From positions 224,001 through 288,000 of the forward strand of contig OZ241883.1 of NCBI GenBank assembly GCA_965203445.1: a stretch of DNA of 64,000 nucleotides, given 5' to 3'. This DNA comes from Candidatus Oxydemutator sp. GTDB lineage: Bacteria; Pseudomonadota; Gammaproteobacteria; Poriferisulfidales; Oxydemutatoraceae. This document shows, piece after piece, positions 2,551 to 60,624 of this stretch. A model generated the notes under the pieces. It made no database searches. It saw only the letters and a list, made by a program, of their open reading frames with translations, and was not told where the DNA came from. The stretch's first letter is position 1; each line of letters starts with the position of its first letter. Both the position numbers and the translations under genes were made by a program.

Positions 2551-2578
2551 CTGGGTTCCCGCTTTCGCGGGATGACGG
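2551..2578. repeat. Short palindromic REP/dRS3-like element
   Basis: CTGGGTTCCCGCTTTCGCGGGATGACGG forms a hairpin (TCCCGC...GCGGGA) resembling the widespread TTCCCGC-N-GCGGGAATGAC intergenic repeats. Confidence 0.5.
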
Positions 2579-2745
2579 AGCGGCGGCTGCGCGTTTTGTC
2601 TTCAGCGCCGCGCCGGGGCGGGCGCGAGTTTCGTATTTATCGCTTGAAGTTGCTGATTTGGCAATGAAATATTCCCGACGAACGGTATCGTTTCAGCACG
2701 TGCAGCGGCGCCCCCACCGGAAAGGGGCACGGCCGAACTACCCGC

Positions 2746-18183: not shown

Positions 18184-18293
18184 TTTCTCCAGCAAAACAC
18201 AGTCGGGCCTTCTTTGCGACCACCCCCGTCGCTGTGCCACCATATGGAACGCCCTCGGCAAGGACAAACACGAATGATCGGGGGAAGTAAAGG

Positions 18294-18389
18294 GGGCGCA
18301 GTATACCCCTTTCCGGCCCCCGCTGCAAACGCGCAAGATGATGCAGGAAAGAGACACGTATTTGGGCGCAGTATACCCCTTTCCGGCCC
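18294..18389 (-). promoter_or_regulatory. Duplicated 26-bp element containing a TATACT -10-like box upstream of the adhesin
   Basis: GGGCGCAGTATACCCCTTTCCGGCCC occurs exactly at 18294-18319 and 18364-18389; the minus strand reads ...AAAGGGG-TATACT-GCGCCC. Confidence 0.6.
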
Positions 18390-32776: not shown

Positions 32777-33388
32777 TCAGATCGGCAGGTTCGAAACGTA
32801 GGCCGCGGCGGCGACGACGGTGCCGATGAAGGCAATCAGCGTCATCACGTTCCACCGGATTATCCGCGACTCCAGGTCGGATATTCTCCGGTCGAGACGC
32901 AGCTCCACGCCCATGATCTGTCTTTCGAGATCGGCGCGCAGGGCCACCCCGTCGGCGCGCACCTCGGAACGCAGCACGCCCATCTCGGAACGCAGCGCGT
33001 CCATCTCGGAATGCAACACGCCCATCTCGGAACGCAGCGCGTCCATCTCGGAATGCAACACGCCCATCTCGGAACGCAGCGCGTCCATCTCGGAACGCAG
33101 CACGTCCATCTCGGAACGCAGCGCGTCCATCTCGGAACGCAACACGCCCATCTCGGAACGCAGCGCGTCCATCTCGGAATGCAACACGCCCATCTCGGAA
33201 CGCAGCGCGTCCATTTCGGAACGCAGCGCGTCCATCTCGGAATGAAGCGAAGCCAGGTCACCGTGAACGGCGGTCATGGCGTTTTCAAACCGGCCGCGTG
33301 TGACCGGTTCGTTCCAGTTCACCGAGGACGCCTCCAGTTGCCCCGTTTGCGGGTTTGTCGGTGTTTCTTTTGTCATTGTTTTTCGCAT
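32777..33388 (-). CDS. Heptad-repeat coiled-coil protein with C-terminal membrane anchor, copy C
   Basis: AAGGAG SD before ATG 33388; WNEPVTRG motif; 13 tandem L[RH]SEM[DG][AV] heptads; IIRWNVMTLIAFIGTVVAAAAYV C-terminus. Confidence 0.8.
   Translation of the reverse strand: MRKTMTKETPTNPQTGQLEASSVNWNEPVTRGRFENAMTAVHGDLASLHSEMDALRSEMDALRSEMGVLHSEMDALRSEMGVLRSEMDALRSEMDVLRSEMDALRSEMGVLHSEMDALRSEMGVLHSEMDALRSEMGVLRSEVRADGVALRADLERQIMGVELRLDRRISDLESRIIRWNVMTLIAFIGTVVAAAAYVSNLPI
32962..33246 (-). repeat. 21-bp tandem repeat (about 13.5 units) encoding the heptads
   Basis: CCATCTCGGAA(C/T)GCA(G/A)C(G/A)CG(T/C) recurs head-to-tail without spacers. Confidence 0.95.
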
Positions 33389-33444
33389 TGCGGTTCTCCT
33401 TGTTGCTCGCGCAAAAAAGAAAACCACTGTGCCGTCGGCAAAGG

Positions 33445-33493
33445 GCAGCATAACCACAACCGGAACAAAAGGCACGCTTTGGCCGACGAACGG
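33445..33493 (-). promoter_or_regulatory. Conserved upstream motif, copy C
   Basis: Minus strand CCGTTCGTCGGCCAAAGCGTGCCTTTTGTTC...TATGCT; the motif starts 102 nt before the ATG at 33388. Confidence 0.6.
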
Positions 33494-33557
33494 TAAAAAG
33501 CCAGTCGGCAAAGGGCCGACCGGCGCGCACAAAGAAACGGGCCGGCCGCCGTCCACG

Positions 33558-34460
33558 TCATCGCCGTTTGCGCGCGCGCGGGTGTGCGCGGTCATATACC
33601 CCGGCGAGATGCTGAAAATCCAGGTGGGTATATACCTGCGTCGTGCCGACGTCGGCGTGACCCAGCAGTTCCTGCACCGCGCGCAGATCGCCGGACGATT
33701 CGAGCACGTGGCTTGCGAACGAGTGGCGCAGCATGTGCGGGTGCAGGCGCCGCGCCAGACCGTGGCGGCGCGCGAACAGGCGCATGCGTATCTGCACCGC
33801 GCGCGCGCCTATGCGCCCGCCGTGGCGGGCCGTGAACAGCGCCGGTTCGGCGGCGCCCGCGCAATCGGCGCGCGCGCGCAGCCACCCGCGTACGGCGTCC
33901 ACCGCGCGCGCGCCGACCGGCGTCTCGCGCTGTTTCGAGCCTTTGCCAGTTACGCGCACCAGGCCGGCGTCGAGGTCGAGGTCGTCCACGTTCAGCGACA
34001 CCAGTTCCGCCAGGCGCAGCCCCGAGGAATACGCAAGCTCGACCATCGCAAGATCGCGCACCGCCAGCGCGTCGCCGGCGGCGGCGGCGCCGTCTAGCAG
34101 GCGCGTGATCTGATCCACGCTCAGCGTCTCGGGCAGGCGCTTGTCCGCGCGCGGCGGCGTGACCGTCTCGGCCGGATTGCGCGGCGCAAGGCCATGCTCG
34201 ACGCAGTAGCCGAAAAAGCGCCGCAGCGACGACAGCTCGCGTTGCAGGGTGCGCGCGCCGATGCCCGCCACGAAGCGCCACGACACGTACTCGCGCACGT
34301 GCTCGTCGCCGACGCGGTTCCACTCGAGGTGCGCGTCCTCGAGGTAGCCGAGAAAACGCCGCACGTCGCGGGCGTACGCGTCGAGCGTGTGCGCCGAGTA
34401 GCCGCGCTCGCCACGCAGCATCTCGAGAAACCGGCGGCAGGCTTCGCGCGGCGGCGTCAC
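33558..34460 (-). CDS. xerC: Tyrosine recombinase XerC
   Basis: SSGLRLAEL, GKGSKQR, HPHMLRHSFASHVLESSGDLRAVQELLGH, TTQVYTH; dapF-DUF484-xerC context. Confidence 0.95.
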   Translation of the reverse strand: MTPPREACRRFLEMLRGERGYSAHTLDAYARDVRRFLGYLEDAHLEWNRVGDEHVREYVSWRFVAGIGARTLQRELSSLRRFFGYCVEHGLAPRNPAETVTPPRADKRLPETLSVDQITRLLDGAAAAGDALAVRDLAMVELAYSSGLRLAELVSLNVDDLDLDAGLVRVTGKGSKQRETPVGARAVDAVRGWLRARADCAGAAEPALFTARHGGRIGARAVQIRMRLFARRHGLARRLHPHMLRHSFASHVLESSGDLRAVQELLGHADVGTTQVYTHLDFQHLAGVYDRAHPRARKRR

Positions 34461-35176
34461 GCGACCAGGCCCTCGCGCCGCGCGCACGCCTTCAGCGCGC
34501 ACCCGATCAGTTCGCCGTACTGCACCAGAAACATCGTGCCCTTGCCGGCGCGGAAACTGTCGCCGTCGGCGCTGCCGAGCGCCAGCAGGCCGAAACAATC
34601 GTCGCCGCCGGCGAGCGGCGCGACCACGGCCGAGGCGACGCGCCGCGCGAAATGGCCGAACAACGACAGCTTGATCGGGTCGTCGAACGGCCCGCAGTCG
34701 GGCTTGCCGGCCGCGGCCAGCGCGCGCAGCAGGCGCACGACCCTGGCGTCGCCGCCGTCGTCACCCAGGCCGTCCTGCGCGTCGTAGCGGCGCACCAGCC
34801 GGATCACGACCTGGTTGCCGGGCAGCCGGCGCCGCAGTTCGGCGCGCGCCACGGCGGCGACCTCGCGCGGCGTGTCCGCGTCCATCAGTCTCAGCGACAG
34901 GCGGTGCAGGCCGATGCCCAGGTTCTCGTTGGCGCGCGCGGTTTCGATGAGCGCGTCGAGCCGCTCCTTCAGCTCGCCGTTCTTGCCGCGCAACAGCGCG
35001 ACCTGTTTCTCGATGAGCGACGGTATCCTGACGCCGCCATCTTCCGCGTCGCGCACGCGCCCCAGTTCGAGGCTTTCAAGCAGGGCCGCGTGGCGCTCGA
35101 AAAAGGAGGGGTTTTCGCGCAGGTAGCGCGCGACTTCCGCGTCGCGCCGCGCGCCGTCGGCACCTTGCGCGCTCAT
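34457..35176 (-). CDS. DUF484 family protein (YigA-like)
   Basis: VARYLRENPSFFERH, SLIEKQVALLR, GTMFL; lies between dapF and xerC. Confidence 0.88.
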   Translation of the reverse strand: MSAQGADGARRDAEVARYLRENPSFFERHAALLESLELGRVRDAEDGGVRIPSLIEKQVALLRGKNGELKERLDALIETARANENLGIGLHRLSLRLMDADTPREVAAVARAELRRRLPGNQVVIRLVRRYDAQDGLGDDGGDARVVRLLRALAAAGKPDCGPFDDPIKLSLFGHFARRVASAVVAPLAGGDDCFGLLALGSADGDSFRAGKGTMFLVQYGELIGCALKACARREGLVA

Positions 35177-35994
35177 GCCGCCAGCACCCCGTCGTACACG
35201 TGCTCGCACGGTCCGGTCAGCTCGACGCCGCCCTCGTCGCGCGCGACCTCGAGCACGCCGCCCGGCAGGCGCACCTCGACGCGCGCCCCGACCAGGCCGC
35301 GGCCGGCGGCGACCACGGCCGCGGCGCAGGCGCCGCTGCCGCAGGCCGCGGTCTCGCCGACGCCCCTTTCGTACACGCGCAATTCCAGACGGCGTTCATC
35401 AACGCGGCGCATGAAGCCGGCGTTGACGCCGGCGGGAAAACATTCGTGCGCTTGCAGGCGCGCGCCGATCTCGGCGACCGGGCAGTCCTCGAGATCCTCG
35501 ACCTCGGCCACCGCGTGCGGGTTGCCGAAGCCGACCACGCCGAAACGCAAACGCAGGCCGGCGGCGTCGAACGGAAAATCATCGCCGGTGTCGCCGGCGA
35601 AGGGCACGCGCGCGGCGTCAAAAACCGGCGCGCCCATGCCGACGCAGACGCGGCCGTCGTCGCGCACGCGCATCTCGACTATGCGCTCGGCGGTGCGCGC
35701 GCGCAGCGTCGTCTTTTCACTCAGTCCGCGCGCGCGCACGAAGCGCGCGAAGCAGCGCGCGCCGTTGCCGCATTGCGCGACCTCGCGCCCGTCGGCGTTG
35801 AACACGCGGTAGCCGAAATCCACGCCGCCGTCGGGCGGCGCCTCGACCAGCAGCAGCTGATCGAAGCCGACGCCGGTGCGACGGTCGGCCAGCGAGCGCA
35901 CGCGCGCGGCGTCCGGCTCGAACGGGCGCGCGACCGCGTCGACGACCATGAAGTCGTTGCCGAGGCCGTGCATCTTGGCGAATTCGACCGTCAT
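35173..35994 (-). CDS. dapF: Diaminopimelate epimerase
   Basis: KMHGLGNDF, CGNGARC, GNPHAV, ERGVGETAACGSGACA. Confidence 0.97.
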   Translation of the reverse strand: MTVEFAKMHGLGNDFMVVDAVARPFEPDAARVRSLADRRTGVGFDQLLLVEAPPDGGVDFGYRVFNADGREVAQCGNGARCFARFVRARGLSEKTTLRARTAERIVEMRVRDDGRVCVGMGAPVFDAARVPFAGDTGDDFPFDAAGLRLRFGVVGFGNPHAVAEVEDLEDCPVAEIGARLQAHECFPAGVNAGFMRRVDERRLELRVYERGVGETAACGSGACAAAVVAAGRGLVGARVEVRLPGGVLEVARDEGGVELTGPCEHVYDGVLAA

Positions 35995-36057
35995 GGGGAA
36001 ACCGGGGGGAACGGGGGCGGCTGCGACACCCTTGGGATTATACCGGCCGTGCGCGGC

Positions 36058-36738
36058 TCAGCGCACGGCCTCTATGCTCTTGTGCGGCAGGAATATGCCG
36101 CAGCCGAGCTTTTGTCCGTCTCCCAGACCCTGCTGCTGCAAACGCACCGTCTCGTCGAACGTCAGGCCGCCGACCATCAGGCTGGACACCACGATGTCGC
36201 CGTCGGGAACGCGCACGACGCGGCGGCGGCCGCTCATCATTTTGCGCGCGACGATGCCCTTTTGCCGCAACAGGGACGCGGCCCGTTCGAGGAAGGCGTG
36301 TTCACCGCCGTGCGCGGGCGCCGCCAGGCGGCGCGTGAACAGCGTCGTCTCGCGGCTGAGCGGATGCACGGCGGCGGCGCCGACGGCAATCTCGTAGCCG
36401 CCGGCGTCGAGCGTCGCGCCCACGAGAGCGCGCGCGTCATCGAAGCGTTGCTTCGGCAGGCGCAGGCGCAGGCGCGCGCGCCGCGACAGGTGGATCTCGT
36501 CGCGCCCGCCCTGCGGGCGCATCCAGCCGCTGCCCGACTCGGCGCCGTGGATCGAATGGATGGCCGCGAGCGGTTCGTCGTCCAGCCACGGCAATATCTC
36601 GACCAGCGCCCGGTACAGATGCCAAGCGTGGTCCGAAGGCAGGCGGCGGCAGACGACGCGAAAATGCAGGTCGGCGACGTCGTCGGGCACGCGCAACGGC
36701 CGATCTTCTTCGCCCGCCTCTCGCCAATGCGGATTCAT
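36058..36738 (-). CDS. Orphan Cas6-like RAMP protein (Cmx6/type I-MYXAN-like)
   Basis: LPSDHAWHLYRAL...LPWL, LSRRARLRLRLP and the C-terminal Gly-rich loop LQQQGLGDGQKLGCGIFLPHK. No other cas genes or array in the window. Confidence 0.8.
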   Translation of the reverse strand: MNPHWREAGEEDRPLRVPDDVADLHFRVVCRRLPSDHAWHLYRALVEILPWLDDEPLAAIHSIHGAESGSGWMRPQGGRDEIHLSRRARLRLRLPKQRFDDARALVGATLDAGGYEIAVGAAAVHPLSRETTLFTRRLAAPAHGGEHAFLERAASLLRQKGIVARKMMSGRRRVVRVPDGDIVVSSLMVGGLTFDETVRLQQQGLGDGQKLGCGIFLPHKSIEAVR

Positions 36739-36932
36739 CGGACGTTGTCGGCGGCCGAAAAGGCGGCTTCCAGCCGCGCCTCCCAGTCTTCGGGAGTATC
36801 CGCAAACGGCGGGCGCACGTCCATCTCTATGAAAATCTCGCCGGCGCGCGCACGGCTTTTGACGTATTCGACGAGTTCCCCGAAACTAGACCAGTCGCGG
36901 TTGCTCATCAGTGCCTCGCTGATTGCGAGCAT
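36735..36932 (-). CDS. Small conserved protein coupled to the Cas6-like gene
   Basis: 65 aa with MDVRPPFADTPEDWEARLEAAF; ATGA overlap with the cas6 start. Confidence 0.75.
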   Translation of the reverse strand: MLAISEALMSNRDWSSFGELVEYVKSRARAGEIFIEMDVRPPFADTPEDWEARLEAAFSAADNVR

Positions 36933-36935
36933 CGC

Positions 36936-38357
36936 TCAAGTTCGACCCGATTCCGCTTTGGCGACGGGTTTGCCCGCCGGCGCCTTCCTGGCAAGTCGCT
37001 CGACTCTAGTGACGTACAGGGTCTGACCATCGTGGGTGGCCAGCCGCCAGGCGCTGACCGAAATGGACTTGGCGACGGGTCTTGGACGAGACAGCGCAAC
37101 CGCCCGTGCCGTCGTGACACCCAGCTTCAATTCGCACCCGTCGCCGTTGCTTGCGAGTTCCGACAGGATTGACTGCGCTGACGGGGGAGGTGTGACGAGG
37201 CTATGGCCGGCCCTTTGCGGGCCGTCGGCCATTTTGGCCGCCATGGCCTGAAGATACTTCGCATCCTGAACTTGCAGCCAAGGCGACGGCAACCACTCGA
37301 CGCCGGCAAGACATCCCAGCAGGCCGCCGGCCATCGCCGCCAGAGTATCGGTGTCCGCCCCCTTCTCGAAGGCTGCCCTGAGGATGCCTTGAACCGGCTG
37401 CGCCGCGTGTCGCGCCGCAAGGTACGCCGCCGCCGCCGCGCTGCTGGTTCCCGCTCCTTTGGCGCGCCCGAAGCACCCGAGATGCTTAAGAGTCGAGTGA
37501 TCGTCGGCAAGCGCCCCGGCTTGCAGTCCCTTTCGCGCCGCTTCGAGCAGTTCGCGCATTTCGCAAACCGTGTTCTCCCAAAGTTCGCCATAACGACCGT
37601 CCGTCGCCTCCTCCGCCGCCTCGAACCACGCACCGCCCTGGCGCTCGGATTTCGGCAACTGACTCCACTCGGGCGTTTGATCAATCAACAGTTCCAGCAA
37701 TTCGCCGAATCGAAGCGTGCTGCGGTTGCGGGTCAGGCACCAGGCGGCGTAGGCGTATGCCGCCGCCCCGACGAGGGCGCGCGGGTGGCCATGGGTGGCG
37801 GAACCGTCCAAAATCACGTCGTGAATAAGGGTGGCGGCGTTCGCCTGCCCGGCGAGAAACAACGCATGCGGCAGGGCGCGCATGGCCACGCCGTTGCCGC
37901 CGGCCTCAAAGTATTGGCGAACGCTGTTTTTCCGGGTGGACTTCCACGGCGGACACCCGTCGGCCCAAGCTGCGGCGGCGCGCCTGGTGGCGCCGCCGCC
38001 ACCCCGCTCGTACAGCGTCCACAACGGCAGTTCTACGCGAGTGAACGCCTTCCACCAAGCCGGGCCATGGTTCGCCCTGCTACGCGCCACCGCAAGCGTC
38101 AGCTGCGTATCATCGCTGTAGTCTCCGGCGTGAATGACTTCCTCAAACGGATGGAAACGTCCGCCGCTACGCCGCGTCCATTGCGTGAACTCCACCTGAG
38201 GGTTTGCCGAAACGATCTTGCGGACGCTCCCCGGCATCTCTTGCGGCCAGCCCAGCGCGTCGCCGGCGGCCAGCGCCAGAAAGGCGCCCTCGGCCTTCGC
38301 CAGCAGCGACAAACCCGGCCCCCGCGGCTCGTGCCGGCTGCTATCCGGCATTGCCAT
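36936..38357 (-). CDS. ADP-ribosylglycohydrolase (ARH/DraG family)
   Basis: AAGDALGWPQE, YSDDTQLT, GNGVAMR, THGHPRA, GADTDTLAAMAGGLLG; AAGGAG SD 6 nt before ATG 38357. Confidence 0.9.
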   Translation of the reverse strand: MAMPDSSRHEPRGPGLSLLAKAEGAFLALAAGDALGWPQEMPGSVRKIVSANPQVEFTQWTRRSGGRFHPFEEVIHAGDYSDDTQLTLAVARSRANHGPAWWKAFTRVELPLWTLYERGGGGATRRAAAAWADGCPPWKSTRKNSVRQYFEAGGNGVAMRALPHALFLAGQANAATLIHDVILDGSATHGHPRALVGAAAYAYAAWCLTRNRSTLRFGELLELLIDQTPEWSQLPKSERQGGAWFEAAEEATDGRYGELWENTVCEMRELLEAARKGLQAGALADDHSTLKHLGCFGRAKGAGTSSAAAAAYLAARHAAQPVQGILRAAFEKGADTDTLAAMAGGLLGCLAGVEWLPSPWLQVQDAKYLQAMAAKMADGPQRAGHSLVTPPPSAQSILSELASNGDGCELKLGVTTARAVALSRPRPVAKSISVSAWRLATHDGQTLYVTRVERLARKAPAGKPVAKAESGRT

Positions 38358-39120
38358 CTTCATCTCCTTGTCGAAACTTGTGCTCCTTTGGAATTTCTCC
38401 GGAACGGAGCATATCCCTGAGCTTTTGCGGATCAAAAAAATCCGGAACAATCAGGATAGGAAGCGGGTCGGCATGAAGCATCTGCATCCGCACCGCCTCT
38501 CTCTTGGCCTGCGCTTCATTGTACACTGCAACTCCAATCACATCCCGCCATTCGACACGGTCGGGAATAAGAACCTCCGCCTGTTGGTCAGTGGGCAGAA
38601 AGGCGGGATGGAGCGGACCGCGTATGAACGTTCGGTTACCTTCTACAGTTTTTTCAAAAAGACCTTCGAATGCCTGCTCACCCTCCTGAACATATTTGCC
38701 AACCCCCGCCGCCGCATTGCGGGGGCAGAACTTCGTGCCGGGGCGCCATAGATAGTAGCACCTGATCAACAGCACGACCCAGTCTTTGAAGAGACACTTG
38801 CCTGCACTGTCGAACGGGCCGGGCGACCCCGAACCTTGCACGACGCAGTCTTTGAAGAGAGGCTTGCCTGCACGCGCTTTTTTGAAGTACCAGGCATTAG
38901 GATACTGAATGGAGCAGCATACATGATCCGGATACCCATCGAAACGATCCCTATCCGTCGGATTGAAAACCGCTCTCTCATCCTCCTTAAGCTGTTTCGA
39001 GGCGAGGACGCCATGCTGATCCGTCACTATATGCCCGAGATTACGAGACGGCGTGAAGTGACACAGTCTGGTGATGCCGCGCCTTTCAGAAGCTTCTTTG
39101 ATTGCAGTAATTTCCTTCAT
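38341..39120 (-). CDS. DarT-like (DUF4433) DNA ADP-ribosyltransferase
   Basis: LCHFTPSRNL, DRDRFDG, CCSIQYPN, FCPRNAA and QQAEVLI (putative catalytic E) match the DarT/DUF4433 motif layout. Confidence 0.82.
   Translation of the reverse strand: MKEITAIKEASERRGITRLCHFTPSRNLGHIVTDQHGVLASKQLKEDERAVFNPTDRDRFDGYPDHVCCSIQYPNAWYFKKARAGKPLFKDCVVQGSGSPGPFDSAGKCLFKDWVVLLIRCYYLWRPGTKFCPRNAAAGVGKYVQEGEQAFEGLFEKTVEGNRTFIRGPLHPAFLPTDQQAEVLIPDRVEWRDVIGVAVYNEAQAKREAVRMQMLHADPLPILIVPDFFDPQKLRDMLRSGEIPKEHKFRQGDEDGNAG
38772..38873. repeat. 36-bp direct repeat (33/36 identical) around a 30-bp unique segment, in frame within the DarT-like gene
   Basis: GCACGACCCAGTCTTTGAAGAGACACTTGCCTGCAC (38772-38807) versus GCACGACGCAGTCTTTGAAGAGAGGCTTGCCTGCAC (38838-38873). 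Confidence 0.9.
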
Positions 39121-40499
39121 TGCAGTTGATACAAGGCTTTGTTATCCGGCAGCATGGCCGTAACTTGTCCGGAGTGCGTCAGCACCAGGGTGGACCTGGC
39201 CCTGGTGATGCCGACGTATAACAGACGTCCATTGCGCGTCGCCGCTTCTCCACCCCCTAGAAGTTTGACATCGGTGGGATCGGGCCAATGCTTCCTCGAA
39301 AGAAGCGGCAAAAAAACCGTGTCGAACTCCAGTCCCTTGGCGGCATGATAGGTTCCGAAGAAGATGCCGGGGCCGCCCGGCCATTGATCCAGCGTACGAT
39401 GAAGCCGCATCGCACCGGGTATCTGCCACTCTTGTTTGCGCCTTCTGAAAAGAATGGCCACGGTTCCCGTCCGCGCAAGCCCGGTCGCCTGGGAGATAAC
39501 AAACTGTTTTTCCTGCTGTTCATCCGGCAGTTCCCTTAGCGCCGGCGGCGGCTCGTCGGCGACTGGTGCCTTGGGTTCGACCAGATCGGGATCGCGCGGA
39601 AAATACGGCATTTTGGCAAGCGCCAAGGCAAGTCTGGCAATCTGCGGCATGTTGCGATAGTTCTCCTTAAACCGCCAAATCGGATTTTTTACACGAAGAC
39701 CGGCGCTTCGCCACGACACGCGGTGTCCGTATATCTGCTGGGCGATGTCTCCGAAGAAAGTCAGGCTGCCGTTTGGCGGAATCGCCGCCACGAGCGAGCG
39801 CAACATCTCCGGAGAGAAATCCTGCCCCTCGTCAATGACGACGTGGCGGTAACGGCGCTCGCTTCCGTCCCGTTGCAATTCTTTAAGAACGCCGCTGGCA
39901 AGGTCGTTCCAATCGTACAGCTTGCCGTGGCTACGGCGTTCAATCAGGTAGCGTTCGTACAAGCCGAACACGGCGGCCCGTTCGTTTCGCACGACACGAG
40001 TACCGGCTCGACCTGTGCGTTCGGCTTCGATGTAGTCTTGCTCCTCGGTGATTCCTTGCTGCTGGATCCATGCAAACTCTTCATCCCAGAACTCGGGCGG
40101 GCGCTCCAAGGAGGTGCCGGACAATCCATCGGTCTGCGCTCGCCTTATCACATCGCGTATGCATTGCCGCCGCTCCTCAGAGCCGCAGATACCTCCCCAT
40201 GACAACTTGCCTCGGGACGAGAGATAGCCTGTTGCGAACTTGTGGTAATTCTCTACGGTGACGGGTTTCTGATGCGCGCCGGCCAAGTGCCTCATATAGG
40301 TGACCAGACACTTGTTGAACGTCACCAGCAGCGTTCGCCCGCCATGGTCGGTGTTTGGATGGGACAAGTAGTTCGAGCGGTAAATGGCGAGCGTGGTCTT
40401 GCCGCTGCCGGCAGTGCCTAATACCACCGTGTGGCCGTGCGCGGGCAGGTACAGCACTTCCTTCTGCCGACCCGTCGGTCGCGGTAGCGGAGCGGCCAT
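39117..40499 (-). CDS. Compact superfamily-1 (UvrD-like) helicase
   Basis: GTAGSGKT, IDEGQD, GDIAQQIY, ENYRN, TYHAAKGLEFD, LLYVGITRAR; ATGA overlap with the DarT-like start. Confidence 0.9.
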   Translation of the reverse strand: MAAPLPRPTGRQKEVLYLPAHGHTVVLGTAGSGKTTLAIYRSNYLSHPNTDHGGRTLLVTFNKCLVTYMRHLAGAHQKPVTVENYHKFATGYLSSRGKLSWGGICGSEERRQCIRDVIRRAQTDGLSGTSLERPPEFWDEEFAWIQQQGITEEQDYIEAERTGRAGTRVVRNERAAVFGLYERYLIERRSHGKLYDWNDLASGVLKELQRDGSERRYRHVVIDEGQDFSPEMLRSLVAAIPPNGSLTFFGDIAQQIYGHRVSWRSAGLRVKNPIWRFKENYRNMPQIARLALALAKMPYFPRDPDLVEPKAPVADEPPPALRELPDEQQEKQFVISQATGLARTGTVAILFRRRKQEWQIPGAMRLHRTLDQWPGGPGIFFGTYHAAKGLEFDTVFLPLLSRKHWPDPTDVKLLGGGEAATRNGRLLYVGITRARSTLVLTHSGQVTAMLPDNKALYQLQ

Positions 40500-40643
40500 C
40501 AGACGACGTGCCTCATGAACTCGTTTCGCTTCATCGGGATGGGCAAGTGAGCGTCGTTCATCAATTCGGGCGGCGGGAGCGGGGATTATAACTGTATGCG
40601 CTCGCCAATTTCCGACGGGGCGGCGGGGCGCCTTGGTACTACG

Positions 40644-41555
40644 TCACGTCGGCGGACGCCAGCCGGCGGCGCCGAGGCGTTTGCGGTAGCGGGCGCGGTA
40701 CAGCAGGCGGGGGGCGTCGTCTTGGTCCTCGAAGGCGTCGCGCGTGTGCAGGACGTTGTTGCAGACGACGCCCTCGGACGCGGCCAGGCGGCGGTGTATG
40801 CGCCAGTCGCTCGTCGCCAGTATCTCGCCAAGGCGCGTCAGCGCGTCGCGGCACTCGGCGCGCCATTTTATATGCCGCGCGCGCGCCGTATAGCGCGTAA
40901 GCAGCGCGCCGTCGCGCGCATCCACCGCGAACACCGGCACGCTGCGCGCCGGGCGTATCTGCCCGCCGTCCTCGACGTTGGCCGGCAGCGTCATCGCGCG
41001 CGGGTGCATCAGCTGCTCGACGTGGCGCGGGTCGTCGTCGCGCAACAGAATATAGACGAGTTCGGGATCGAGATAGCAATTCGCGCCGCCGCTTGCCGCC
41101 GCGCGCACGCAATACATCGAAAAAGCGCGCACGGCGTCGGCGGCGGAGTTGTAATAGCCGTCGGTGTGCCATTGCAGCGCGCGGCGCGTGTATGGAACGT
41201 AGCGGCTGCCCTCGAGCGCGCGGACGTGGCTGATGCGCCCGGCGTCGGCACACGGGTTGGCGATGAGATCGCCAAGCCCCAGTTGCTGGCCCATGCGCTT
41301 GAACGCGGCGCCGTCGCGCAGCGGCTTCGCAAGACGATAGAAACACAGGTTGGCGCGGCGGCAGTTGGCGATGATCGCGGCGCGCTCGGCGTCGCTCAGC
41401 GCCTGCGCGTCGGCGACGACGACGGTCAGTTCGTCCGCCGAGCGCGCGCGCGTCGCCAGCTTGCGTTCGCGCCAGCGTCGGTACGCGGTTTCGTTGCCGG
41501 GCACGAACGGCGAATCGGAACGGTCGGCGGCAGTCGTCGGGAGCGGATGCGGCAT
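40644..41555 (-). CDS. TauD/TfdA-family Fe(II)/2-oxoglutarate dioxygenase-like protein, divergent from dsrA
   Basis: WHTDGYYN and NNVLHTR facial-triad motifs; RLLYRARY. Confidence 0.88.
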   Translation of the reverse strand: MPHPLPTTAADRSDSPFVPGNETAYRRWRERKLATRARSADELTVVVADAQALSDAERAAIIANCRRANLCFYRLAKPLRDGAAFKRMGQQLGLGDLIANPCADAGRISHVRALEGSRYVPYTRRALQWHTDGYYNSAADAVRAFSMYCVRAAASGGANCYLDPELVYILLRDDDPRHVEQLMHPRAMTLPANVEDGGQIRPARSVPVFAVDARDGALLTRYTARARHIKWRAECRDALTRLGEILATSDWRIHRRLAASEGVVCNNVLHTRDAFEDQDDAPRLLYRARYRKRLGAAGWRPPT

Positions 41556-41613: not shown

Positions 41614-41680
41614 ACCCCTTTCCCAGAGGGAGAGGGTTTGATTATGGGCCTGCAGCTGCCCTCTCCCAGAGGGAAAGGAG
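41614..41680. repeat. Two CCCT(C/T)TCCCAGAGGGA(G/A)A hairpins
   Basis: Same palindrome family as 19049-19215 and 59650-59800. Confidence 0.7.
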
Positions 41681-41728
41681 TTCATTTTTTGGCCCTTTTT
41701 GGCCCAAGGGCTATGCCAATAGGCCATC

Positions 41729-41757: not shown

Positions 41758-41846
41758 CCTTAGTTACCCATTTGGAGGCCGTGCCGGTCACGGCGGGTTT
41801 GCGCCAAGCGCTTGACCCAAGCACAAAACGACCACGGAGGAACGTT

Positions 41847-43112
41847 ATGACGGCTACGCAGAAGCATCAGACGCCGATGCTGGACGAATTGGAGAAAGGC
41901 CCCTGGCCGAGTTTCATCTCCGGAATAAAACGCCTGCGCGACCAGCACGAGGACGAACGCGTAAGCGGCGTCGCCAACGACCTGCTGGGTCAGCTCGAAC
42001 ACTCGTACGAGACGCGCCGCGGCTATTGGAAAGGCGGCACCGTCAGCGTCTTCGGCTACGGCAGCGGCATCATCCCGCGCTTCTCGGAGGTCGGCGCGGC
42101 GTTCCCCGCCTCCAAGGAGTTCCACACGCTGCGCGTGCAGCCGCCGGCGGGCAACTACTACACCACCGACATGCTGCGCAAACTGGCCGAGAGCTGGGAG
42201 AAATGGGGCTCCGGACTGGTGACCTTCCACGGCCAGACCGGCAACATCATGTTCATCGGCGCGAGCACCGAGAACACCCAGCATTTCTTCGACGAGATCA
42301 ACGATTACGGCTGGGACCTCGGCGGCGCCGGGCCGTGCGTGCGCACCGGGCAGTCGTGCGTCGGCGCGGCGCGCTGCGAGCAGTCCAACATAGACGAGAT
42401 GCGCGTCCACCGCACGCTGCTGAACAACTTCACCGACGACGTACACCGTCCGTCGCTGCCCTACAAGTTCAAGTTCAAGGTTTCCGGCTGCCCCAACGAC
42501 TGTATGAACTCGATCGAGCGCTCCGACCTCGCGATCATCGGCACCTGGCGCGACGACATGAAGGTGGATCAGCGCGAGGTCAGGCAATACGTCGAGAAAA
42601 AGGGCCGCCAGTACATCACCGACAACGTCATCGCGCGTTGCCCGACGCAGGCGCTGTCGCTGGCCGAAGACGACACGCTCGAAGTGGACAACCGCAACTG
42701 CGTGCGCTGTATGCACTGCCTGAACGTGATGCCCAAGGCGCTGTCGCCGGGCGACGACAAGGGCGCGACGCTGCTGATCGGCGGCAAGCGCACGCTCAAG
42801 ATCGGCGATTTGATGGGCACCGTCATCGTGCCGTTCATGAAGCTCGAGAGCAAGGAAGACTTCGAGCGCCTCGTCGAGATCGCCGAGGAGACGATAGACT
42901 TCTGGGCCGAGAACGGGCTGGAGCACGAGCGTTGCGGCGAGATGATCGAACGCATCGGTCTGGTCAACTTCCTCGAGGGAGTCGGCCTCGACGTGGATCC
43001 GAACATGATCTCCGACCCGCGCACCAGTTCCTACGTGCGCACCGACGACTGGGAGCAGGAGGCGGCCAAATGGTTCGAGCACAAACGAGAAAAGCTGGCG
43101 GCCACCGCCTAG
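41847..43112 (+). CDS. dsrA: Reverse dissimilatory sulfite reductase, alpha subunit
   Basis: TPMLDELEKGPWPSFISG, YWKGG.V.VFGYGSGIIPRF, LPYKFKFKVSGCPNDC, CVRCMHCLN. Confidence 0.98.
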   Translation: MTATQKHQTPMLDELEKGPWPSFISGIKRLRDQHEDERVSGVANDLLGQLEHSYETRRGYWKGGTVSVFGYGSGIIPRFSEVGAAFPASKEFHTLRVQPPAGNYYTTDMLRKLAESWEKWGSGLVTFHGQTGNIMFIGASTENTQHFFDEINDYGWDLGGAGPCVRTGQSCVGAARCEQSNIDEMRVHRTLLNNFTDDVHRPSLPYKFKFKVSGCPNDCMNSIERSDLAIIGTWRDDMKVDQREVRQYVEKKGRQYITDNVIARCPTQALSLAEDDTLEVDNRNCVRCMHCLNVMPKALSPGDDKGATLLIGGKRTLKIGDLMGTVIVPFMKLESKEDFERLVEIAEETIDFWAENGLEHERCGEMIERIGLVNFLEGVGLDVDPNMISDPRTSSYVRTDDWEQEAAKWFEHKREKLAATA

Positions 43113-43172
43113 GCAAGCCCTAAGGCGAACCCCTAGACACGCGACACGCCGCACCGAACAAGGAGACTATAG

Positions 43173-44249
43173 ATGGCGCAACACCACCGCGAACCGATAG
43201 AGTCGGGCTGCCCCGACGGTTTTCAATACATGCATCCCGTGATGCGCAAGAACTACCGCAACTGGGCCTACCACGAAGACCCGCGCCCGGGCGTGCTCAA
43301 GCACGTTGCGCGCGACGGCGACGACGCGATATGGACGGTGCGCGCCGGCACCCAGCGCATCCTCGACGTGTTCACGCTGCGCAAACTGTGCGACATCGGC
43401 GACCGCTACGCCGACGGCTACGTGCGCTTCACGATACGCAGCAACATCGAGTACATGGTCGCCGACGAAAGCAAGGTCATGCCGCTGATAGGCGCGCTCG
43501 AGGACGCCGGCTTCGTCGTCGGCGGCACCAAGAACTCGGTGACGATGATCTCGCACACGCAAGGCTGGCTGCACTGCGACATTCCGGGCACCGACGCCTC
43601 GGGGGTGGTCAAGGCGATGATGGACGAGCTGGTCGAGGAGTTCAAAAACTGGAACATGCCCAACCGCGTGCACATCACCACGTCGTGCTGCCAGATCAAC
43701 TGCGGTGGCCAGGGCGACATCGCGATCAACGTCCAGCACACCAAGCCGCCGAAGATCAACCACGACCTGGTGTCGAACGTGTGCGAGCGCCCGTCGGTGG
43801 TGGCGCGCTGCCCGGTGGCGGCGATCCGCCCGGCGATGGTCAACGGCAAGCCGTCGCTCGAGGTGGACGAGAAAAAGTGCATCTGCTGCGGCGCGTGCTA
43901 TCCGCCGTGCCCGCCGATGCAGATCAACGACCCGGAACACACCAAGCTGGCGATCTGGGTCGGCGGCAACCACTCGAACGCGCGCGGCAAGCCGACCTTC
44001 CAGAAACTGGTCGCCGCCGGCATTCCGAACAACCCGCCGCGCTGGCCCGAGGCGACCGCGGTGGTCAAGAAAATCCTGAAGACCTACAAGGAAGACGCCA
44101 AGGACTGGGAGCGGATCAACGACTGGATCGAGCGCATCGGCTGGCCGCGCTTCTTCGAGCTGACCGAGCTGCCGTTCACCAAGTACCACATAGACAACTG
44201 GCTGGGAGCCAGACGCAGCCTCAACTCCTCGGCGCACGTGCGCTTCTGA
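43173..44249 (+). CDS. dsrB: Reverse dissimilatory sulfite reductase, beta subunit
   Basis: HTQGWLHCDIPGTDASG, SCCQINCG, CICCGACY, WIERIGWPRFF. Confidence 0.98.
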   Translation: MAQHHREPIESGCPDGFQYMHPVMRKNYRNWAYHEDPRPGVLKHVARDGDDAIWTVRAGTQRILDVFTLRKLCDIGDRYADGYVRFTIRSNIEYMVADESKVMPLIGALEDAGFVVGGTKNSVTMISHTQGWLHCDIPGTDASGVVKAMMDELVEEFKNWNMPNRVHITTSCCQINCGGQGDIAINVQHTKPPKINHDLVSNVCERPSVVARCPVAAIRPAMVNGKPSLEVDEKKCICCGACYPPCPPMQINDPEHTKLAIWVGGNHSNARGKPTFQKLVAAGIPNNPPRWPEATAVVKKILKTYKEDAKDWERINDWIERIGWPRFFELTELPFTKYHIDNWLGARRSLNSSAHVRF

Positions 44250-44269
44250 CGCCGCCGCCGGCGCCGTTG

Positions 44270-44662
44270 ATGAAACTGTCGCTGCTGGTCAACGAGGGCC
44301 CGTACACGCACCAGGCGTCCGACAGCGCGTACCGCTTCGCGCTGGCGGCGTTGGCCAAGGGGCACGAGATCTACCGCGTCTTTTTCTACCACGACGGCGT
44401 TCACAACGGCACGCGCCTGGGAGCGCCGCCGCAGGACGACAGAAACCTGCCGCAGCTATGGTCGGAGCTGGCCGCCAGGCACAAACTCGATCTGGTGGTA
44501 TGCGTCGCCGCGGCGCAGCGCCGCGGCCTGCTCGACGGCGACGAAGCCAAACGCCACGGCAAGGACGCCGACAACATCGCGCCCGGCTTTCGCATCTCGG
44601 GTCTCGGCCAGCTGATAGAGGCCGGCGTGCAGTCCGACCGCCTGGTGACGTTCGGCGATTGA
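44270..44662 (+). CDS. dsrE: Sulfurtransferase DsrE
   Basis: MKLSLLVNEGPYTHQASDSA, VFFYHDGV, VCVAAAQRRG, GFRISGLGQL. Confidence 0.95.
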   Translation: MKLSLLVNEGPYTHQASDSAYRFALAALAKGHEIYRVFFYHDGVHNGTRLGAPPQDDRNLPQLWSELAARHKLDLVVCVAAAQRRGLLDGDEAKRHGKDADNIAPGFRISGLGQLIEAGVQSDRLVTFGD

Positions 44663-44692
44663 CGCCGCGCCCCGCTCGCACCGACACAAACG

Positions 44693-45124
44693 ATGGACGA
44701 AGCACAAGACAACGGCGACGGCACGGTCAAGAAGTTCCTGTACATGAACCGCAAGGCGCCGTACGGCACCGTGTACGCGTTGGAGGCGCTCGAAGTCGTG
44801 CTGATCGCGGCCGCGTTCGACCAGGACGTGAGCATAGTGTTCGCCGACGACGGCGTCTATCAGCTGATGAAGGGGCAGGACACCGGCGACGTCGGCATGA
44901 AAAATTTCTCGCCGACCTACGCGGCGCTCGGCGACTACGACGTCAAGAAGATCTACGTCGAGCGCGAGTCGCTCGAGGAGCGCGGCCTGTCGCCCGGTGA
45001 CTTGCAGGCGCTGACCTACGAGGACGAAGACGACGACTACAAGGAAAAAAACTCGCTGCACGTCGTCGCCCGCGAGCAGCTGGCGAAGCTGATCGCCGAA
45101 CAGGACGTGGTTCTGAGTTTTTGA
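44693..45124 (+). CDS. dsrF: DsrF
   Basis: KKFLYMNRKAPYGTVYALEALE, DDGVYQL. Confidence 0.95.
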   Translation: MDEAQDNGDGTVKKFLYMNRKAPYGTVYALEALEVVLIAAAFDQDVSIVFADDGVYQLMKGQDTGDVGMKNFSPTYAALGDYDVKKIYVERESLEERGLSPGDLQALTYEDEDDDYKEKNSLHVVAREQLAKLIAEQDVVLSF

Positions 45125-45142
45125 CGGCCGCGGAACGACGCG

Positions 45143-45454
45143 ATGGCCATGCTGCACATAGTCAACAAATCGCCGTTCGAGCGCAACGCGCTGGACGCCT
45201 GCCTGCGCCTGGCCGCGCCCGACGCTTCGGTACTGCTGATCGAGGACGGCGTCATCGCCGCAACGCGCGCCGCGCGCGTCGCGGACAAGGTGACCGACGC
45301 CATGCAGAGGGGGCTTGCGTTTTTCGTGCTGGCACCCGACGTGCGCGCGCGCGGCCTCGGCGAGGAGCGCCTGATAAGCGGCGTTACCGCGGTGGATTAC
45401 GACGGCTTCGTGGACTTGGTGGCGAACCACGATAATGTACAATCATGGCTGTGA
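45143..45454 (+). CDS. dsrH: DsrH
   Basis: MLHIVNKSPFE, LLIEDGV, VDYDGFVDLV...QSWL. Confidence 0.95.
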   Translation: MAMLHIVNKSPFERNALDACLRLAAPDASVLLIEDGVIAATRAARVADKVTDAMQRGLAFFVLAPDVRARGLGEERLISGVTAVDYDGFVDLVANHDNVQSWL

Positions 45455-45488
45455 CGCCTGCAACCAGGACAACGACGGAGGAAAAACC

Positions 45489-45821
45489 ATGCCTTTGGAA
45501 GTAGATGGGAAAACCTATGAAACCGACGAGGAAGGCTACCTCGCCAACCTGAGCGACTGGAAACCGGAGTTGGCGACCGCGATGGCCACCGCCGACGGCG
45601 CCGAGCTGGACAGCAACCACTGGGAAGTCATCAACTTCCTGCGCGAGTACTACGAGGAATACCAGATCGCCCCGGCGGTGCGCGTGCTGACCAAGGCCAT
45701 CGGCAAGAAGCTCGGCAAGGACAAAGGCAACAGCAAGTATTTGTACGAACTGTTTCCCTACGGCCCGGCCAAACAGGCCTGCAAATACGCCGGCCTGCCG
45801 AAACCGACCGGCTGCGTCTGA
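45489..45821 (+). CDS. dsrC: Sulfur carrier DsrC
   Basis: ETDEEGYL; C-terminal LFPYGPAKQACKYAGLPKPTGCV with both conserved Cys. Confidence 0.97.
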   Translation: MPLEVDGKTYETDEEGYLANLSDWKPELATAMATADGAELDSNHWEVINFLREYYEEYQIAPAVRVLTKAIGKKLGKDKGNSKYLYELFPYGPAKQACKYAGLPKPTGCV

Positions 45822-45879
45822 AGCGCCGCCGCCGGCGCTCGCACCGGCTTTCCGTGCGGGGGCCGGGGCCGGAATCGTC

Positions 45880-46629
45880 ATGTCATTGCTGACCGCAGCC
45901 TACGCGGCCTTGTTCTATCTGGCGACCGCGGTGCTCGTCGGCGGCGTCGCCTACCGCATATGGCTGTACCGGCGCGCGCCGGCGCCGCTGAAGATCCCGA
46001 CGACGCCGGCGCCGACCACGCGCCGCGGCGTCGTCTTTCGCATGTTCAAGGAAGTCGTGTTTTTCGAGAGCCTGTTCAAGTCGAACAAGTGGATCTGGCT
46101 GTTCGGATGGCTGTTTCACTTCGGCCTGCTGCTGGTGCTGCTGCGCCACCTGCGCTACTTCACGCAACCGGTGTGGTCGTGGGTCGAGTGGCTGCAACCC
46201 GTCGGCAAGTACGCGTCGCTGATGATGGTCGCCGGTCTCGCCGGCCTGTGGCTGCGCCGCATCGTCGTCGACCGCGTGCGCTACATCTCGTCGCCGTCGG
46301 ATCACCTGATGCTGCTGCTGCTGCTTTTGATCGGCGCGACCGGCATGTGGATGACCTTCGCAAACCCGGTCGACATCGTCTCGATGAAGATGTTTTTCCT
46401 GGGACTGATGCGCCTCGAACTGCACCCGCTGCCGCCCGACGCGCTGATGAACGTGCACCTGGCGCTGGTGGCGGCGTTGATGATCGTGTTTCCGTTCAGC
46501 AAACTGCTGCACGCGCCCGGCGTCTTCTTCAGCCCGACGCGCAACCAGGCCGACGACGCGCGCGACAAGCGCCACGTCGCGTCCTGGGCGCTCAAACTGG
46601 AACACTCCGGAGGGCGCCCCGATGGCTGA
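45880..46629 (+). CDS. dsrM: Membrane b-type cytochrome DsrM
   Basis: NarI-like TM protein; PLKIPTTPAP, FPFSKLLHAPG. Confidence 0.95.
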   Translation: MSLLTAAYAALFYLATAVLVGGVAYRIWLYRRAPAPLKIPTTPAPTTRRGVVFRMFKEVVFFESLFKSNKWIWLFGWLFHFGLLLVLLRHLRYFTQPVWSWVEWLQPVGKYASLMMVAGLAGLWLRRIVVDRVRYISSPSDHLMLLLLLLIGATGMWMTFANPVDIVSMKMFFLGLMRLELHPLPPDALMNVHLALVAALMIVFPFSKLLHAPGVFFSPTRNQADDARDKRHVASWALKLEHSGGRPDG

Positions 46630-48145
46630 AGCCCAATTCCAGGTGCCCGAGTTCCGCGAATACCGCGTCATCCCGAAACTGCGCGAAGGCGCGATGGCGC
46701 ACAGCCAACCGTTCGTCGCCAAGCCCGATTTTCAGAAGCCGCTCGGTTTCCCCGGCGAACTGGTGGACGACTGGGAGCGCAAGGCGGTTGCGAAAATGGG
46801 CGAGTTGAACGAGAAGTACCGCTCGTTGCGGGTGTTTCTCGATTCGTGCGTCAAGTGCGGCGCGTGCACCGACAAGTGCCATTACTATCTGGGCACGACC
46901 GACCCCAACAACATGCCGGTCGCGCGCCAGGATCTGTACCGCAAGGTCTATCGGCGCTACTACACCTTCGCCGGCAAATACTTTCCGTGGCTGGTCGGCG
47001 CCAAGGACATGAGCCGGGAAGTGCTCGATCAGTGGTACACCTATTTCCACCAGTGTTCGCAATGCCGCCGCTGCTCGGTCTATTGCCCGTACGGAATAGA
47101 CACCGCCGAAATCTCGATGGCGGCGCGCGAGGTCATGGACCACGTCGGCCACGGGCAGAAGTACTGCAACGAGATCATCGGCAAGGTGCACACGGTCGGC
47201 AACAACCTGGGACTGCCGGAACCGGCGCTGCGCGACACCCTCGAGGGGCTCGAGGAAGAAGTCCTCGAGGACACCGGCGCGGCGGTGCGTTTTCCGCTCG
47301 ACGAGAAAGGCGCCGAGGTGCTGCTGGTGACGCCGTCGGCGGATTTCTTCGCCGAACCGCACGTGGACGGGCTGATCGGCTACGCCAAGGTGCTGCACCA
47401 GGCCGGCGTCTCATGGACCTTAAGCTCCTACGCGAGCGAAGCCGCCAACTTCGGCCTGTTCATCGGCAGCTACGAAAACATGCGCAAGTTGGCGCTGCGC
47501 ATACGCAAAGTGGCGCTCGAGCTCGGCGTCAGTCGCATCGTCTTCGGCGAGTGCGGCCACGCTTGGCGCGTCGCCTACAGTTTTCTGAACACGCTGGCCG
47601 GGCCGTTCGATTTCCTCGACCCCGATTATCCGGTGCCGCAACACGTCTGCGAGGTGACCCACGCCCTGATACAACAAGGCCGACTGCGGCTCGACCCGTC
47701 GCAAAACGACGACAAGATCGTAACCTTCCACGATTCGTGCAACGTCGCGCGCGCGTCGCGCATGGGTGGCGTGGCGGGCGGGCAGTTCACGATCCCGCGC
47801 GACATACTGCGCGCGTGCTGCAACCATTTTTACGACATGCCGGCGGAGACCACGCGCGAGGGCACCTACTGCTGCGGCGGCGGCGGCGGCCTGCTGACCG
47901 ACGATCTGCTAGAGTTGCGCGTCAAGGGCGCGCTGCCACGGATGGAGGCACTGAAGGAGGTCGTCGAGGACTACGGCGTGACCCACATGGCCGCGATCTG
48001 CGCGATCTGCAAAAGCCAGTTTTCCAAGGTGCTGCCTTACTACGGATTCACGATGGACCAGGTCGTAAGCCTGCATCAACTGGTCGGCGACGCGCTCGTG
48101 CTGGAAAAAGAAGCCGGCGCCGAAGCCGCGGAAAAGGCGGCCTGA
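46622..48145 (+). CDS. dsrK: Fe-S protein DsrK
   Basis: CVKCGACTDKC, CSQCRRCSVYCP, GECGHAWR, CCGGGGG. Confidence 0.96.
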   Translation: MAEAQFQVPEFREYRVIPKLREGAMAHSQPFVAKPDFQKPLGFPGELVDDWERKAVAKMGELNEKYRSLRVFLDSCVKCGACTDKCHYYLGTTDPNNMPVARQDLYRKVYRRYYTFAGKYFPWLVGAKDMSREVLDQWYTYFHQCSQCRRCSVYCPYGIDTAEISMAAREVMDHVGHGQKYCNEIIGKVHTVGNNLGLPEPALRDTLEGLEEEVLEDTGAAVRFPLDEKGAEVLLVTPSADFFAEPHVDGLIGYAKVLHQAGVSWTLSSYASEAANFGLFIGSYENMRKLALRIRKVALELGVSRIVFGECGHAWRVAYSFLNTLAGPFDFLDPDYPVPQHVCEVTHALIQQGRLRLDPSQNDDKIVTFHDSCNVARASRMGGVAGGQFTIPRDILRACCNHFYDMPAETTREGTYCCGGGGGLLTDDLLELRVKGALPRMEALKEVVEDYGVTHMAAICAICKSQFSKVLPYYGFTMDQVVSLHQLVGDALVLEKEAGAEAAEKAA

Positions 48146-48229
48146 ATGCGGCCCATGGTGCGGCTCATGGCGCGGCCCGTGATGCATCATAGGCGCCGCG
48201 ACGACGCCGAACAACGATAGGAGCAACCG

Positions 48230-59647: not shown

Positions 59648-59800
59648 GGCCCATCCTCTCCTAGGGGGAGAGGATTACAGGGTTCTCGGCCCAGCTTCTC
59701 GGCCCAGCTTCTTCGGCCCATCCTCTCCATAGGGGGAGAGGATTACAGGGTTCTTGGCCCGGCCTCTTGGCCCAGCTTCTCCTAAGAGGGAGAGGGTTCG
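59648..59800. repeat. Duplicated ATCCTCTCC-N-GGGGAGAGGAT hairpin unit plus short GGCCCAGCTTCT repeats
   Basis: GGCCCATCCTCTCC(C/CA)TAGGGGGAGAGGATTACAGGGTTCT occurs twice, followed by a third degenerate copy. Confidence 0.8.
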
Positions 59801-60547: not shown

Positions 60548-60624
60548 TGGTAGGCGCGGCTGGACTCGAACCAGCGACCCCCACCATGTGAAGATGGTGC
60601 TCTAACCGACTGAGCTACGCGCCC
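60548..60624 (-). tRNA. tRNA-Val (anticodon CAC)
   Basis: GGGCGCGTAGCTCAGTCGGTTAGAGCA-CCATC-TTCACAT-GGTGG-GGGTCGCTGGTTCGAGTCCAGCCGCGCCTACCA: cloverleaf with TTCGA loop and encoded CCA. Confidence 0.96.

Follow-up and report, generated by a model that had tools for sequence, protein, structure and literature searches.

Do the three overlapping genes at positions 36936-40499 of a 64,000-nt stretch of Candidatus Oxydemutator sp. (contig OZ241883.1) form a defence system that has so far escaped description, as a preliminary description of this DNA had proposed, or do they belong to a system that is already known? Throughout, the window means this whole stretch of 64,000 nt, and all position numbers are those of the window. 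Our analysis indicates that the trio, which encodes a superfamily 1 (SF1) helicase of the UvrD family, a DarT-like ADP-ribosyltransferase and an ADP-ribosylglycohydrolase of the ARH/DraG fold, is very probably a further, slightly damaged copy of a module of the DarHTG kind and not an undescribed system. The three open reading frames (ORFs) follow each other head to tail on the minus strand, as DarH-like helicase (39117-40499, 460 aa, ATG start), DarT-family toxin (38341-39120, 259 aa, ATG start) and DarG3-like ARH antitoxin (36936-38357, 473 aa, TGA stop). These coordinates agree with the co-oriented, overlapping arrangement noted before, ATGA at 39117-39120 being common to the helicase stop and the DarT start, and the DarT and ARH genes overlapping by 17 nt (38341-38357). 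The longest ORF for the ARH protein spans 36936-38450, and the ATG at 38357 agrees with the N-terminus of its nearest relative.

The precedent is the Escherichia coli system Liu-DS3, which was named DarHTG in April 2026 (Liu et al., Nucleic Acids Res, PMC13069673). According to that paper, the system consists of DarH, a UvrD-like helicase without 2B domain, of DarT, and of DarG3, an antitoxin with an ADP-ribosylglycohydrolase fold; it guards E. coli against T4, T7, T5 and SSL_2009a, its defence needs both the active site of DarT and the ATP site of the helicase, a DarG3 mutant could not be constructed, and the system is found across several phyla, with Thermodesulfobacteriota and Bacteroidota being the richest (PMC13069673). 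The window trio is like E. coli DarHTG in all three components, combining a DarT that has the catalytic glutamate with an adjacent UvrD helicase lacking 2B and an ARH-fold antitoxin. A match to an already described system, named in the preliminary description as something that would speak against its proposal, is thus present at the level of architecture, and the word "undescribed" has to be given up, the architecture having been published as DarHTG. Apart from the DarHTG paper, no second description of the trio was found in the literature, with subscription-only papers lying outside the scope of the search. The trio does not represent a new class of defence, since its architecture was both published and tested in 2026, and the value of the present analysis lies in the detail that it adds to the young DarHTG family: new here are a toxin that is nearest to DarT1, the exchange of ARH for a NADAR antitoxin in a relative, the predicted binding of helicase and DarT, and the atypical copy in the window.

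Domain families, folds and motifs all supported the parts list of helicase, DarT-like transferase and ARH eraser given in the preliminary description. The helicase matches the Pfam families UvrD-helicase (PF00580, E = 7e-15, residues 17-262) and UvrD_C (PF13361, E = 1.6e-16), the latter only with its last part, where residues 379-442 correspond to profile positions 287-347 of 350. Aligning a profile of the 31-member helicase family with E. coli UvrD (3lfu) placed profile positions 212-365 on UvrD 209-369 and positions 372-448 on UvrD 545-616, leaving UvrD 370-544 unmatched. This unmatched segment is, according to the literature on the UvrD structure, the location of the 2B domain, which the helicase thus lacks. 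Its AlphaFold2 (AF2) model, with a predicted local distance difference test score (pLDDT) of 87.2, resembles UvrD, PcrA and Rep best, at a template modelling (TM) score of about 0.70 on the query and 0.52 on the target. Walker A (G28-T35) and the DEGQD motif (D223, E224, Q226 and D227) are invariant or nearly so in the 31 helicase relatives, and the GajB models of PADLOC matched the helicase at 1e-17 and weaker.

The toxin matches the DarT family of Pfam (PF14487, E = 3.9e-20) over profile positions 1-200 of 201 and, with 20.5 bits against a cut-off of 150, does not reach the threshold of the NCBIfam model NF048013 (toxin_DarT). By sequence as well as by fold, the window DarT is nearest to the guanine-specific DarT1 and not to DarT2. 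A sequence search of the PDB returned DarT1 of E. coli C7 as the sole match (8baq, E = 1.2e-18), with no DarT2 at E <= 1, and the AF2 model of the toxin (pLDDT 84.9) again found its best fold in 8baq (E = 2.6e-14, TM 0.75 on the target, 30% identity), compared with TM scores of 0.31-0.65 and identities of 13-20% for the DarT2 chains. H21 and the glutamate of the QAEV motif, E182, are invariant in 40 sequences, and an ESM Atlas search with the toxin yielded DarT clusters only.

The antitoxin belongs to the ARH family of Pfam (PF03747, E = 8.1e-41, residues 24-358), and all 51 sequences compared share its metal-site residues D33, D82-D83-T84 and D335-T336-D337-T338. Together with Walker A, DEGQD and E182, this conservation across relatives substantiates the earlier remark that the catalytic motifs are intact. 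The nearest solved relatives of the ARH protein are DraG (2woe, E = 7.6e-10) and ARH1 (3hfw), both of which are arginine-specific enzymes; the DraG model TIGR02662 was not reached (63.9 bits, cut-off 337). Pfam gave no NADAR match in the ARH gene and no macrodomain match in any of the three window proteins.

Comparison with relatives showed that the trio is a recurrent unit. We obtained 986 relatives of the window DarT at E <= 1e-3 among 1413 candidates and 1838 relatives of the ARH protein at E <= 1e-20 among 8000 scored candidates; the family is thus large and widespread: DarT-like protein clusters number about 1000, ARH-like ones exceed 1800, and 54 species-level loci encode a relative of the window DarT. 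These loci, found with two peptide patterns in one genome per species, belong to Latescibacterota, Acidobacteriota, Pseudomonadota, Cyanobacteriota, Planctomycetota, Bacillota, Actinomycetota and others, a list of phyla that is not a census. Helicase, DarT and ARH follow in the same order on one strand in 48 of the 54 loci (tblastn classification), which answers the question of conservation among homologues raised by the preliminary description. Intact trios account for 37 of them, two are cut by a contig end, and nine carry a frameshift, stop or truncation, eight of these nine with a lesion in the helicase. The remaining six loci are not trios: L040 and L044 combine DarT and ARH without helicase, L053 has helicase and DarT without ARH, L051 holds remnants only, and L048 starts at the contig border with DarT, followed by genes of a phosphotransferase system (PTS). 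In the sixth, from Paraclostridium (L046:4564-7324), helicase and DarT are followed by a DarT1-type NADAR antitoxin (PF22397, E = 1.9e-85) in place of the ARH protein. A quick tree, unrooted and built with no DarT1 or DarT2 outgroup, places the DarTs of L046 and L048 together with ARH-linked DarTs in a supported clade of six members. The trio was also present on a Ralstonia megaplasmid and on a Streptomyces plasmid, where the genes are annotated as '3'-5' exonuclease', 'DarT ... family protein' and 'ADP-ribosylglycohydrolase family protein', and a tblastn search of a phage collection with DarT gave no match. One locus has two helicase paralogues upstream of a single DarT (L030:2573-5992, paralogues at 2573-3979 and 4583-5992), separated by a gap of about 600 nt.

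The genomic context of these relatives gives a hint to the function of the module. We scanned the nearest flanking ORFs, at most four per locus, with PADLOC, in total 179 ORFs from 51 loci, leaving out L019 and L039, which had no qualifying flanking ORF, and L048 with its PTS flanks; the first part of the scan was run at 1e-10 and the second at 1e-20, and all of it was read at E <= 1e-20. At this threshold 34 of the 179 flanking ORFs, distributed over 23 of the 51 loci, matched a defence model, and in a crude control two of 29 other window ORFs did so, namely a housekeeping UvrD and a lone cas6-like gene. The trio is often nested in loci of the bacteriophage exclusion (BREX) type: PglX stands directly upstream in seven loci (L006, L009, L010, L013, L015, L021 and L031) and PglZ downstream in three (L006, L010 and L012), so that PglX and PglZ enclose the trio in L006 and L010. 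The neighbourhoods also contain DpdJ, Ppl, HEC-01, DruE, an E1-E2/JAB protein, prokaryotic Argonaute (pAgo), SoFic, AbiE, AbiL and a reverse transcriptase, in addition to restriction enzymes of types I, IIG and IV. The phage-defence reading of the preliminary description is therefore sustained by the 48 conserved trios and by the defence neighbours of the relatives, but not by the immediate surroundings of the window trio, which lies outside any defence island.

How might the three proteins work together? A predicted complex of helicase and DarT supports binding between the two, with a score of 0.76 (0.71, 0.76 and 0.78 in the individual runs), compared with 0.00 for the best of three controls. 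Of 157 solved complexes, 116 attained the mark applied to this score, as did two of 215 mismatched pairs, counts that hold only roughly because our own alignments were used here. The runs have at least 76% of their contacts in common, with a partner pLDDT of at least 72, and the predicted interface joins helicase residues 7-20, 24, 40-52 and 272-275 with DarT residues 25-33, 108-113, 203-216 and 251-252. Since we know of no solved helicase-DarT complex, the score is unlikely to reflect the memory of a structure. The predicted interface thus provides a concrete hypothesis for the role of the helicase: the UvrD-like protein without 2B would carry DarT on its N-terminal domain and, using ATP, would travel along or open DNA, so that DarT might meet single-stranded replication intermediates.

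There, the DarT-like enzyme would use NAD+ to ADP-ribosylate a base in single-stranded DNA, most likely guanine as with DarT1, and the adduct would be expected to block replication of phage and host DNA alike, while the ARH-fold enzyme would clear it through its two-metal site and in this way keep the cell's own DNA clean. Similarity and modelling point to a DarT1-like target of the guanine type rather than the thymidine target of DarT2. Because a DarT1-type NADAR can stand in for the ARH protein downstream of this helicase-DarT pair, the ARH protein probably removes the same kind of base adduct as NADAR does, and the swap suggests that the ARH fold can reverse base-linked ADP-ribose, an activity on DNA that, to our knowledge, has not been shown for this fold. 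Known ARH enzymes cut the N-glycosidic bond to the guanidino group of arginine, a group whose chemistry resembles that of the exocyclic amino group in guanine. The nearness to DarT1 and the NADAR swap together yield a testable prediction on the target base and on a new substrate of the ARH fold. In relatives, the variable tail of the antitoxin, which may be winged-helix-like, glyoxalase-like or DprA/SLOG-like, is probably regulatory. The joint proposal, in which the ARH protein would reverse guanine-N2-type ADP-ribose on DNA, the helicase would serve as the physical loader of DarT on single-stranded phage DNA, and the tail would act as a sensor that releases the toxin, is tentative, and we consider it possible yet somewhat doubtful that all of its parts hold together.

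The trio can also be compared with other known systems. The toxin nearest to the window DarT is that of DarTG1, which pairs DarT1 with NADAR (E. coli C7, 8baq) and to which the relative L046 with its DarT1-type NADAR provides a bridge, but the window antitoxin has the ARH fold and a helicase gene is joined to the operon. With DarTG2 (DarT2 and the macrodomain protein DarG, e.g., in Thermus and Mycobacterium tuberculosis) the trio shares its toxin family, PF14487, and the principle of a DNA ADP-ribosylation that can be reversed, yet it is without a macrodomain and its fold likeness to DarT2 is weaker. DraT/DraG and ARH1, which act in reversible ADP-ribosylation of protein arginine, have the ARH fold and the metal-binding motifs in common with the window eraser; however, the writer in the window is a DarT and not of the DraT type, and full-length relatives have an eraser that exceeds these enzymes by about 200 residues and bears extra C-terminal domains. 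In Gabija (GajB) and ietHAS, an SF1 UvrD-like helicase is likewise an essential accessory of a defence effector, but the helicase of the window is smaller, at 460 aa, has no 2B domain, is predicted to bind DarT directly and is not accompanied by a GajA-like nuclease. From E. coli DarHTG itself, the window copy differs by a 22-residue insertion in DarT, by an ARH protein without the tail of its own relatives, and by its host, a high-GC bacterium with a dsr operon.

Two of these peculiarities had gone unnoticed in the preliminary description, namely a 66-nt in-frame insertion in the DarT gene and an ARH protein whose C-terminus lacks about 85 residues found in its relatives. The insertion covers approximately residues 88-109 and is bounded by an imperfect pair of direct repeats on the minus strand (38772-38807 and 38838-38873, 36 nt each, 92% identical, 66 nt apart), and the 30-nt filler between them has no second copy in the window. 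Not one of the 11 aligned relatives has it, not even the nearest, whose identity apart from the gap is 91%, and none of the best 120 of the 986 DarT relatives exceeds 245 aa. The alignment with DarT1 (8baq) breaks at the same place, query residues 7-87 and 112-197 corresponding to 4-81 and 82-168 of the chain, and the AF2 model shows residues 86-110 as a loop with pLDDT below 50. DarT residues 108-113 of the predicted interface border the insertion, which could therefore disturb the contact with the helicase.

As for the antitoxin, the window protein has 473 aa, whereas the best 120 homologues have 497-648 aa, mostly 550-565, and nearly all relatives possess the C-terminal tail that it lacks. 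Close relatives end in a winged-helix-like tail; elsewhere the tail has a glyoxalase fold (L018, L026 and L038), is DprA/SLOG-like (L044, 6668-9088, 806 aa) or is unrecognised (L012, L047 and L054), and a protein of 497 aa (P0205) and an ORF of L030 are likewise without tail. Beyond the ARH stop the frame stays open for 65 codons (36741-36935, minus strand) with no recognisable tail domain: it matched no Pfam or NCBIfam family and nothing in the 54 loci, and its BLASTP comparison with the tail of a full-length relative was not significant (E = 0.61). Some tblastn alignments weakly cross the stop (L001, L005, L012 and L038), and an ESM Atlas search with ARH residues 372-473 gave no usable match. 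The nearest known ARH relative (P0121) loses its family likeness after about residue 400 and from there resembles a frameshifted or out-of-frame translation, so this relative may also be damaged or mis-assembled.

These features make the window copy atypical, and it may be heading towards decay. Nevertheless, all three of its reading frames remain open and no invariant catalytic residue has been lost, and the chances that it is still active appear about evenly balanced. A stronger version, according to which the window copy is a decaying remnant of the same family that has ceased to function in defence or as a toxin-antitoxin module, seems unlikely to us but deserves serious weight. It could build on a DarT insertion that stands alone among the aligned relatives and the best 120 matches and that touches the predicted helicase interface, on an antitoxin shorter than any of its best 120 homologues, on a nearest ARH relative that itself reads as frameshifted, and on the frequency of lesions in the family (nine of 48 trios, eight in the helicase). 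Set against this are the open frames and the intact catalytic residues, the position of the insertion in a modelled surface loop that leaves the core fold confident, the few relatives that are tail-less as well, and the possibility that some lesions in the family are assembly errors in metagenome-assembled genomes.

Several observations weigh against the assignment of the window trio to an active DarHTG module that acts on DNA. The match with DarHTG rests on architecture and domain families, not on an alignment with the proteins of the E. coli prototype, and when all complete E. coli genomes were searched by blastn, neither the window trio nor the lower-GC trios of L052 and L047 produced a match. 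The PADLOC check suggested in the preliminary description recovered the toxin only in part (DarT model, 1.8e-8), and version 2.0.0 has no model that matches the ARH protein. Around the trio, PADLOC matches are restricted to the housekeeping UvrD and the lone cas6-like gene; the nearest solved ARH relatives act on ADP-ribosyl-arginine in protein and not on DNA; and the DarT insertion together with the missing ARH tail means that the copy may be inactive. One could thus regard the trio as an independent, analogous assembly that is like E. coli DarHTG in its domains only and not homologous to it as a system, all the more as no sequence link to E. coli was made and as our family comes from Latescibacterota, Acidobacteriota, Pseudomonadota and others, whereas the DarHTG paper puts Thermodesulfobacteriota and Bacteroidota first (PMC13069673). 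We consider this improbable, since the UvrD-like helicase without 2B, DarT and the ARH-fold antitoxin all coincide, in the order that the name DarHTG implies, and since the phyla recovered with two peptide patterns in one genome per species are no census. Highly improbable is a housekeeping role, in which the module would regulate replication or DNA repair by reversible DNA ADP-ribosylation and would not be anti-phage. The housekeeping genes on both sides of the window trio and the absence of a surrounding defence island would fit such a role, a UvrD-like helicase would suit repair, and a regulatory function of DarTG in M. tuberculosis has reportedly been proposed in print (PMC12170906); it is difficult to reconcile, however, with the patchy distribution across phyla, the low GC content and the plasmid copies, with relatives that are embedded in BREX or neighbour restriction-modification, Druantia, pAgo and Abi genes, and with the protection against phages reported for E. 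coli DarHTG (PMC13069673). Least probable of all, in our view, is that the transferase modifies protein (at arginine) or RNA and that the ARH protein is a DraG-like protein de-ADP-ribosylase: the arginine specificity generally known for DraG and ARH1, its closest solved relatives, favours this idea, but both sequence and fold identify the transferase as a DarT that is nearest to the DNA-acting DarT1, one relative exchanges ARH for the DarT1-associated NADAR, and the obligatory partner is a DNA helicase. Overall, a DarHTG-type module that acts on DNA remains the preferred interpretation of the trio.

The base composition of the trio is not uniform. GC content is 0.54-0.60 across 38250-40499, i.e., mainly in the helicase and DarT genes, compared with 0.69-0.74 in 33500-36499 and 0.69 in 40500-41249, so that the lower GC reported for the whole trio applies to these two genes; the ARH gene, with 0.64-0.67, is near the window mean of 0.656. 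The trio is indeed set among host genes, as described previously; its flanks are of the housekeeping kind, one with xerC, a DUF484 gene and dapF, the opposite one with a TauD-like gene and the dsr operon. The neighbourhood showed no integrase that would belong to the trio, and the nearby recombinase was ruled out as an island integrase, because it reaches the XerC equivalog cut-off and is thus a housekeeping protein. Likewise, no convincing flanking direct or inverted repeats were found as island borders, the sole tRNA gene in a scan of the window is at 60548, and a promoter and terminator scan of 36500-40800 gave no promoter-like site (1.0 expected) and four terminator-like sites (4.3 expected).

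Directly downstream of the trio lies a lone cas6/cmx6-like gene (36058-36738, minus strand), which matches PF09559 (E = 3.8e-54) and exceeds the cut-off of TIGR02807 (129 bits against 98.85). A tandem-repeat scan of the window revealed no array of clustered regularly interspaced short palindromic repeats (CRISPR), no cas model matched among the 29 other window ORFs scanned with PADLOC, and in none of the 54 related loci were the cas6-like and TauD-like genes found near the trio. The dsr cluster (41772-50209, plus strand) includes a DsrA that reaches its equivalog cut-off, followed by Pfam matches to sulfite-reductase domains (second subunit), DsrE, DsrH, DsrC, a nitrate-reductase-gamma-like protein, an iron-sulfur protein and a pyridine-nucleotide oxidoreductase, and it indicates a sulfur-metabolising, high-GC host. 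Elsewhere in the window, a giant ORF of 5203 aa (2746-18357, minus strand) contains a 276-nt tandem repeat of 6.4 copies with 92% match (4001-5763). Between hslV and xerC lies a coiled-coil ORF (32777-33595, minus strand) with only low-complexity coiled-coil matches in Pfam and a 21/42-nt tandem repeat of 13.7 copies (32963-33249). Finally, short palindrome-based repeats of the forms CCC[TC]TTCCCAGAGGGA[GA]AGG and GGCCCATCCTCTCCTAGGGGGAGAGG occupy intergenic positions at 41616-41686 and 59648-59780 and look like repetitive extragenic palindromes.

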